A stretch of 64,000 nucleotides of DNA. Source: Schmidtea nova. Lineage: Eukaryota. Positions within the stretch are counted from its first letter, which is position 1, and each line of letters opens with the position of its first letter. The stretch spans positions 7,688,001-7,752,000 of the forward strand of contig CM097884.1 of NCBI GenBank assembly GCA_044892505.1. The letters run 5' to 3'. Positions 15,908 to 16,932 of the stretch are shown here, one piece after another. A program made the translations under genes and the position numbers. The notes below the pieces were generated by a model. It did not search any database, was not told where the DNA came from, and worked only from the letters and a program-made list of their open reading frames with translations.

Positions 15908-16410
15908 TGTAGTGCCTCCGTTATTTATATGTTATTATATTATTTAATTAAATATCAATATTTATATATTAAAATCATTTATTTAATTATTTATAAAAAG
16001 AAAAATCGATTTGTTTTAATCACAAAAAAAAGGACTTTTTTACCTTTTTCAAAAAACAACAAGCAAGAAGCAATTTACAAAAAATGGAAGCTGCACAAAT
16101 TAAAACCCAACGCAAACCACAAAGTTACCAATCGAATGTTGCAATTAAAAAGAACTCAAATCGTACGAAAGAATTCAGTGAGCACAAGAGGCGAATGAGA
16201 CAATCAATCACCCCAGTTATTACTACAAGCACAAAGATAGATATTTCTACCATTGATATTCCAGAGCGCATTAAAGACAGTTATTTGATGAAGCATAAGA
16301 AGATTAATTCAACGGTGAAAGCTGATGATATATCTGCAGCTAAGAAAGAACAATTTGTTTTATTGAATGTATTTTTTTTCGTCTTATTAATTGTTTTTGC
16401 AGCTACTAAA
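15908..16410 (+). repeat. 5' LTR (503 bp)
   Basis: Starts TG and ends 2 nt before the PBS. 16061-16410 is repeated at 21091-21440 with one visible mismatch. Confidence 0.8.
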
Positions 16411-16932
16411 AATGGTGTCAGAAACCCTGATATGATATATGAGGCAAACGTCATTACGAAATTCGCAAACACCAGCATCACTTTTGAACAATTGAGACGA
16501 GATGATTCAGGTTCTTATAAATGCGCTGTTAAAGGAACTACTGAGACCGGGTCATCAATGGAATTGGAAGCCTCGACATTTCAACCAGCCTCAGAAACTA
16601 CATTCTGTCAATCAGTAGAAACAGGAAAGCGTGAAAGTGTCAATTACAACATGCAATCAGTTGAATACTCAGTCAACATCGTCTCATTACCTGAACAATA
16701 TGTCATTGGTCAAAGATTTACCATGCAATGTAAAGTTTATCCTCAATTCAAAACTGCTAGTTATTCTTGTCCGTTGCGTAAACTCGACCTCGGCTCCGAT
16801 TCCTGTGTCATTCACAGTTCCACTAACGGAGCGGCGTTGCAGCTGGAAGCGCCTATTTCTCAAAACAATTGCAACAGCTATTTGGGATTATCGAGCGAGC
16901 GGTATTTTATATGTATTATTTATAATATTTAA
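16084..16932 (+). CDS. 282-aa ORF starting in the LTR: basic N-terminus, hydrophobic segment, two Ig-like motif blocks
   Basis: [17 protein letters not shown] segment, SITFEQLRRDDSGSYKC (Ig E/F strand DxGxYxC) and VIGQRFTMQCKV (Ig B strand). A homologous frame exists in the second copy. Confidence 0.5.
   Translation: MEAAQIKTQRKPQSYQSNVAIKKNSNRTKEFSEHKRRMRQSITPVITTSTKIDISTIDIPERIKDSYLMKHKKINSTVKADDISAAKKEQFVLLNVFFFVLLIVFAATKNGVRNPDMIYEANVITKFANTSITFEQLRRDDSGSYKCAVKGTTETGSSMELEASTFQPASETTFCQSVETGKRESVNYNMQSVEYSVNIVSLPEQYVIGQRFTMQCKVYPQFKTASYSCPLRKLDLGSDSCVIHSSTNGAALQLEAPISQNNCNSYLGLSSERYFICIIYNI
16413..16423 (+). promoter_or_regulatory. Primer-binding site (tRNA-Leu type)
   Basis: TGGTGTCAGAA directly after the LTR. 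The second copy has TGGTGTCAGAAG at 25956. Confidence 0.8.

Follow-up and report, generated by a model that had tools for sequence, protein, structure and literature searches.

A Ty3/Gypsy retrotransposon family of Schmidtea nova whose Gag frame very probably begins in a host-derived part of the LTR

We identified a Ty3/Gypsy retrotransposon in which a single, selected Gag frame very probably starts inside the 5' LTR and continues through a fused leader into a ubiquitin-like domain (Ubl) and the capsid. The leader includes pieces of two host genes, one encoding ribosomal protein L6 (RPL6), now part of the LTR, and the other a tandem immunoglobulin (Ig) gene. With less assurance, we favor a reading in which this arrangement would yield a membrane-tethered Gag precursor whose capsid is freed by a ubiquitin-type protease. 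The element lies in a window of 64,000 nucleotides (contig CM097884.1, positions 7,688,001 to 7,752,000), which is the whole stretch of DNA analyzed, in an AT-rich host genome of 1.25 Gb. Its features, in window coordinates, are as follows.

15903-15907 and 21441-21445: target-site duplication AATTT, 5 bp
15908..16410, + strand: 5' LTR (503 nt, TG...TAAA), with a TATA-like TATAAAA at 15992
16030..16083, + strand: in-frame 18-codon stretch, with no opening ATG in the window copy
16083..16361, + strand: captured host RPL6 (eL6) mRNA inside the LTR, about 85% identical to the host gene
16351..16407, + strand: hydrophobic segment 1 (predicted signal anchor), encoded by the LTR end
16413..16431, + strand: primer binding site (PBS), element-type 19-nt frame-keeping form, its first 11 nt being those of the 18-nt primer-type form
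16448..16880, + strand: captured 3' end of a host tandem-Ig gene (two repeats)
16903..17013, + strand: hydrophobic segment 2 in the gag frame, broken in the window copy by a stop at 16930-16932
17083..17304, + strand: Ubl, with a Gly-Gly end at 17299-17304 and an internal ATG at 17083
17305..18207, + strand: Gag capsid (DUF7041; retroviral CA fold) and Cys/His-rich C-terminus
18165..21089, + strand: pol (PR, RT, RNase H, integrase), in the -1 frame relative to gag
21090..21440, + strand: truncated 3' LTR with a second RPL6 piece, meeting integrase at a short shared AACAA
25605..27060, + strand: copy 2 (sister family B, with another LTR), decayed, PBS at 25956

The window element is assigned to Ty3/Gypsy by its pol order of PR, RT, RNase H and integrase, with a weak match for the protease (E 0.14). 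Paired LTRs, a PBS, and a target-site duplication were all found, and the AATTT duplication indicates a true insertion. The end of integrase is missing from the window copy together with part of the 3' LTR. The LTRs lack the TG...CA ends and terminate in TAAA in the window copy and in all 10 full copies scored; the CA end is retained in some long-type copies and in family B. The TAAA end is a derived deviation and no reason to exclude the element from Ty3/Gypsy. It replaces TACA at 16407-16410 and in most copies of the window family, designated family A (L058-L071), mostly with matching 5-bp duplications, and integration seems to tolerate the loss of CA at one LTR end. In the overlap of gag and pol an A-AAA-AAC-type run lies ahead of the gag stop (18199-18207), which is a likely -1 frameshift site.

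Elsewhere in the window, the interval between the two copies contains another, decayed LTR element whose terminal repeats are short (23691-25434), and a G/T-skewed tandem array with a 21-nt unit occupies 51938-53027. ORFs at 558-1013, 46392-47762, 57530-58414 and 59926-60477 resemble, by eye, remnants of DNA transposons and of RT/RNase H.

The ORF at 16084-16932 (282 aa) begins within the 5' LTR, runs across the PBS at 16413 and holds both Ig-related blocks, as described in an earlier sequence-only reading of this DNA. One of the two options given there was a membrane accessory protein. The ORF is not free-standing, however, but forms the N-terminus of the Gag ORF, and in sister copies the frame continues past the position of its stop. 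A stand-alone ORF was rejected as the stop at 16930-16932 lies in the gag frame and is not common to the sister copies, and a frameshift at the ORF end was rejected as an in-frame stop is found there instead. To sample the family, 30 short-type and 30 long-type loci were taken, 29 of each being covered; they were picked by similarity to the query and are not a random sample. Retention of the frame is partial: it is open from the LTR ATG into the Ubl in 17 of the 29 short-type copies and in 11 of the 29 long-type ones, and not open in the other 12 and 18. The open sister copies encode 709 or 832 aa, running from the LTR ATG through the Ubl and capsid. An extra in-frame ATG occurs 54 nt upstream of 16084 in 16 of 24 and 20 of 26 scorable copies.

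Counted by exact LTR-PBS junctions, the family has at least 263 copies. All 40 scored matches, of 1204 candidates, are 99-100% identical, and the LTRs of 10 full copies differ by 0-3 mismatches in about 490 nt. Judged from these comparisons, the family is young and abundant and a recent large contributor to the host genome. An insert of about 123 Ser/Ile-rich codons follows the PBS in the long-type copies (L072:4895-5260). The opposite strand of this insert looks more protein-like (3 stops), and reading it antisense did not reveal a donor.

Pfam Ribosomal_L6e matches residues 45-90 of the 282-aa ORF, giving the LTR-encoded part a ribosomal-protein origin that the sequence-only reading had missed. 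The host RPL6 gene was the sole full-length match among 150 scored. The LTR aligns to it in three blocks at 85-94% identity, starting at the exon ATG, with the intron absent and a 141-nt in-frame internal deletion. Long-type LTRs are nearer to host RPL6 than short-type LTRs (pS 0.18 versus 0.28). A host RPL6 pseudogene with a long target duplication was considered and rejected as the piece is present in the LTRs of many copies. With a donor in the same genome and no intron in the element, the sequence relationships are those of LTR-mediated capture.

The proposal that the leader holds a captured fragment of an Ig gene was borne out when a search of the same genome yielded the donor, a tandem-Ig gene. 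Pfam V-set matches residues 118-156 (E 3.7e-6, above the cut-off); the C-strands are deleted, and no complete sandwich is present. A tandem-Ig protein at 66% identity was found in a search of 1.84 billion proteins, and its C-strand, used as a probe, recovered host arrays and more than 100 dispersed element copies with an intact Ig. The element keeps the last two repeats of one tandem-Ig gene (L140) down to the final codons, and the donor intron is gone except for 3 nt remaining at a 45-nt intron position. In-frame deletions of 45 and 48 nt remove both Ig C-strands, which accounts for the missing C-strand Trp, an absence already remarked on from the letters alone. Block 1 retains the F-strand D-x-G-x-Y-x-C and lacks the B-strand Cys, and block 2 has the B-strand Cys and an altered F motif. 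Both Ig domains probably do not fold in the window-copy subfamily, where a folded ectodomain is unlikely because the C-strands have been lost. Leaving aside the loss of the RPL6 intron, all six donor-versus-element indels of at least 3 nt are multiples of three (141, 6, 45, 42, 48 and 3).

The host tandem-Ig genes (L138-L141; G000 C2:411.5 and 412.67 Mb) are built of near-identical 372-bp and 375-bp exon-intron repeats, and one array has at least 17 of them. The RPL6-type LTR with the Ig leader was also seen, at low depth, under a second organism label (run X4).

Older subfamilies preserve a more complete leader. Several of 16 dispersed copies start with a signal-peptide-like run, for example MFIPYFVLLTFVLGVSA, and two of the 16 are uninformative. 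The order in these copies is a signal-peptide-like start, an intact Ig, a deleted second Ig, segment 2, and the Ubl. The complete Ig matches Ig_2 (E 2e-7 to 2e-6), and the C-strand Trp is present in this first domain. Three LTR types with hydrophobic starts occur among the older copies. Subfamilies L148, L150 and L152 combine a hydrophobic start with one intact Ig and a different downstream hydrophobic stretch. The older subfamilies appear to have a type I layout of signal-peptide-like start, intact Ig, and membrane segment. The window family appears to have swapped its LTR for the RPL6-derived one and lost the Ig fold while keeping both hydrophobic segments.

Copy 2 in the window holds the second Ig remnant, segment 2, the Ubl, and part of gag. 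It had been described as having an unrelated LTR and entering the PBS in the same frame. Both points stand, and the frame is common to family B, but in copy 2 itself it is interrupted by a stop at 26011-26013. Of the Ig sequence, family B carries the second remnant alone, and among 25 loci a single one has an open frame, of 387 aa, reaching into the Ubl. A search for the donor of the family B LTR found none. Together, family B and the older copies show that unrelated LTRs feed one frame, each with a hydrophobic run before the PBS.

The distribution of insertions and deletions differs along the LTR-leader region. Counting only indels common to at least three copies (rarer ones, inflated by chimeric copies, were left out), the region upstream of the -54 ATG has 5, every one a frameshift, and 14, of which 11 are frameshifts; the leader has none in 1002 nt and a single in-frame one in 1368 nt. 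Shared indels between the -54 ATG and the main ATG largely compensate one another. The net pN/pS of the leader is 0.3-0.55 on few changes, compared with 0.11-0.23 for Gag; host-versus-element ratios include selection in the host. One pair of element copies gives 0.55 (p 0.03) from the second Ig to the sequence before the Ubl. Comparisons of RPL6, segment 1 and the insert with families B and C were left out, as these align unrelated sequence. The ratios suggest a moderate amino-acid constraint on the leader.

The PBS provides a further view of the frame. Reverse transcription copies the PBS from the primer, and an 18-nt primer-type PBS therefore arises repeatedly. This form is one base shorter than the 19-nt form of the element. 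We counted 263 exact frame-keeping forms and at most 73 primer-type forms. The latter figure is an upper bound, as two local clusters account for 25 of the 73 and, of 12 fetched, 5 were not a fit to family A. In each of the 11 primer-type copies examined the ORF is lost, with a stop at 101-132 aa. In a tree of 62 rows, the 8 primer-type copies need 8 separate origins, at least 6 of which are forced by well-supported branches. With only 8 such rows, shuffled labels score as well on the tree, so that the pattern is consistent with primer-type copies being dead ends and does not prove it. A neutral primer-type PBS should have taken over across the subfamilies, which are divergent enough for gag to differ at about half of its synonymous positions.

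The primer of the family is presumably tRNA-Leu; a search for the primer tRNA gene did not find it. At one locus (L117) an insert possibly splits an ancestral PBS, and such copies can also arise during replication. Runs of three PBS matches spaced 3.4-4.1 kb apart occur at three places (G000 C1:11.95 Mb, 44.57 Mb and 142.27 Mb), which suggests tandem deleted elements.

The first hydrophobic segment comprises residues 90-108 (KD19 2.44, on a hydropathy scale). The concern that this run simply reflects a T-rich U5 is answered by composition: only 0.1% of 2000 dinucleotide shuffles of its DNA reach the same hydropathy. The charge bias around it is slight (+2 versus +1). The second segment is kept in families A, B and C, and among 2000 shuffles 1.9% are open and 0.4% are as hydrophobic. 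With two hydrophobic segments in the Gag ORF, the product, for which a type II form had been suggested, is not a single-pass type II protein.

The Ubl was not recognized in Pfam and Atlas searches (best 0.79, a lead only). A structural model (mean pLDDT 56, about 70 over the Ubl) matches ubiquitin-fold chains at Z 8.5-9.0 with an rmsd of 1.5-2.9 over 62-66 residues, and the modeled capsid matches the CA of murine leukemia virus (MLV) at Z 9.5 (rmsd 1.9, 74 aligned). Five relatives from other assemblies share the Ubl-Gag arrangement. The Gly-Gly end is present in four of the five, in two as RLRGG, and the Ubl of one distant relative ends in RSG. A profile of the relatives' Ubl matches SDE2 (E 0.004), ISG15 and ubiquitin, with SDE2 and ISG15 best. 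A clear hydrophobic run upstream is seen in just one of the five relatives, so that a membrane anchor is not universal. A search for longer fused relatives found none, which is weak evidence. An LTR-initiated ORF1 may be old in the Ubl-Gag clade. In two distant relatives (P0041 and P0042) a PBS-like peptide (LVSE) ahead of Ubl-Gag is likewise read through, but in a different frame.

Under the membrane-tethered reading, the host pieces would have been acquired through template switches to co-packaged mRNA. With transcription starting near the TATA box at 15992, the LTR ATG would lie inside the mRNA, and translation would begin in the RPL6-derived part of the LTR. By hydropathy, the two hydrophobic segments are predicted to leave the Ig loop on the lumenal side of the ER and Ubl-Gag in the cytosol, where a host protease could cut after the Gly-Gly and release the capsid. 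Such a cut would explain how the front could be swapped or eroded without harm to the capsid. The internal ATG at 17083 could also give Ubl-Gag without the leader in family A.

The main rival to a membrane-tethered Gag, and one we think rather unlikely, is that the leader is kept only for its frame: the LTR ATG would be needed for Gag, the leader would be discarded after the Ubl cut, and membrane insertion would be incidental. Such a spacer fits the internal deletions in both Ig domains and RPL6, the free gain or loss of the 123-codon insert and leader pN/pS ratios only mildly below 1. It also fits the model of the 282-aa product, which has no confident fold (pLDDT 40; a single-sequence model and hence weak evidence). 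Against a spacer stand the hydrophobic run that each of the unrelated LTRs gives just before the PBS, the persistence of segment 2 in families A, B and C, and the excess of both segments over composition-matched shuffles. Alternatively, the Ig-bearing anchored front could be a surface accessory protein, an adhesin or decoy that is glyco-Gag-like or substitutes for an envelope and aids particle spread to neighboring cells or benefits the host cell. The signal-peptide-like start, complete Ig and membrane segment of the older subfamilies point this way, as do the upstream and internal starts of family A, but we consider this role improbable given that the Ig core is lost in the most recently expanded subfamilies and that no fusogen motif was identified.

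It is also conceivable, although very improbable, that the host pieces are neutral passengers, untranslated, with Gag starting at 17083 and the open frame reflecting only the youth of the copies. The few LTR mismatches and the sizeable fraction of copies that are not open would agree with this, and in family A the ATG at 17083 is in a strong context (19 of 19 scorable of 24 copies). However, 17 ATGs precede it, and an ATG at the Ubl start is absent from all 12 scorable of 22 family B and C copies. In addition, the frame is kept between subfamilies as divergent in gag as noted above, and the indel and PBS asymmetries would not be expected of untranslated sequence.

The family appears to be a retrotransposon with an essential Gag frame that starts in a fragment of host ribosomal-protein mRNA now built into the LTR. 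A visible series is preserved, running from signal peptide-Ig-membrane-Ubl-Gag down to eroded forms. Should the precursor prove to be membrane-bound and cut at the Ubl, it would offer a way of targeting membranes that needs no envelope gene, and host domains could be tried out by a transposon at little cost. From the genome alone, the PBS pattern tests for translation across the PBS, and it is usable in other families. We offer only tentatively, as a picture we would not expect to hold in full, that in this envelope-less clade the capsid is produced as a membrane protein whose outer module is exchangeable and comes from repeated capture of host mRNA (a surface Ig domain, then RPL6 in the LTR), used to assemble at or leave via membranes of highly translating cells, with the Ubl tag as release switch and the mismatched PBS, which would turn a share of the copies of each generation into dead ends, as copy-number brake.

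The element shares LTRs, a 5-bp duplication, a PBS, gag, and the PR-RT-RH-IN order with Ty3/Gypsy (Metaviridae) elements that have a DUF7041 Gag. It differs in that ORF1 starts in the LTR, that RPL6, Ig pieces, two hydrophobic segments and the Ubl precede the capsid, and that the LTR ends in TAAA in most copies. The GAG start of Ty1, which is internal to the LTR, is a parallel, and SDE2 and FUBI are ubiquitin-like fusions that are cleaved. A literature search, in which few subscription journals were covered and Repbase and Dfam lay outside the scope, found neither RPL6 in an LTR nor an Ig-TM-Ubl-Gag ORF, and the family may have been named before.

LTR-mediated retroposition, as described in part of Tan et al. 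(2016, PMC5131818), leaves intron-less pieces of host mRNA between discontinuous LTR remnants. Intron-less pieces of more than one host gene, in frame and inside an LTR element, are common to both cases (PMC5131818, same part), but here one piece is part of the LTR and supplies the Gag start, and the elements are complete and amplifying. In MLV, glyco-Gag is a single-pass type II accessory protein with a CUG start and Gag outside the cell, according to portions of PMC5120145. It shares with family A an in-frame N-terminal Gag extension, a membrane signal, and a downstream Gag ATG. Compared with the glyco-Gag described there, the two segments found here are predicted to return Gag to the cytosol, pol is of the Gypsy type, and the separate Gag start is present in family A and absent in B and C.

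The sORF2 of the MDG1 group is a small ORF of its own that shows FAST-like features and, in many cases, an N-myristoylation motif, as given in sections of 10.1101/2025.03.14.642691. In both that system and ours, sequence coding for a transmembrane stretch precedes gag, and the Gypsy element has no envelope gene. However, sORF2 is a separate ORF of 60-210 aa with one TM in the same sections, whereas the product here is fused (709-832 aa), host-derived, and has no MGxxxS/T start. The planarian Burro1 is likewise a Gypsy element with captured host domains, a RING/BIR region in the extracts of PMC13465017; the domains differ, and the Burro1 capture has a shown function while ours is known from sequence. 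Finally, the ubiquitin inserts of BVDV, in the passages of PMC13517609 that treat them, also place a ubiquitin-fold domain with a Gly-Gly end directly before the released protein. In contrast to those inserts, the Ubl described here is an old part of the clade's Gag, and its cleavage is predicted.
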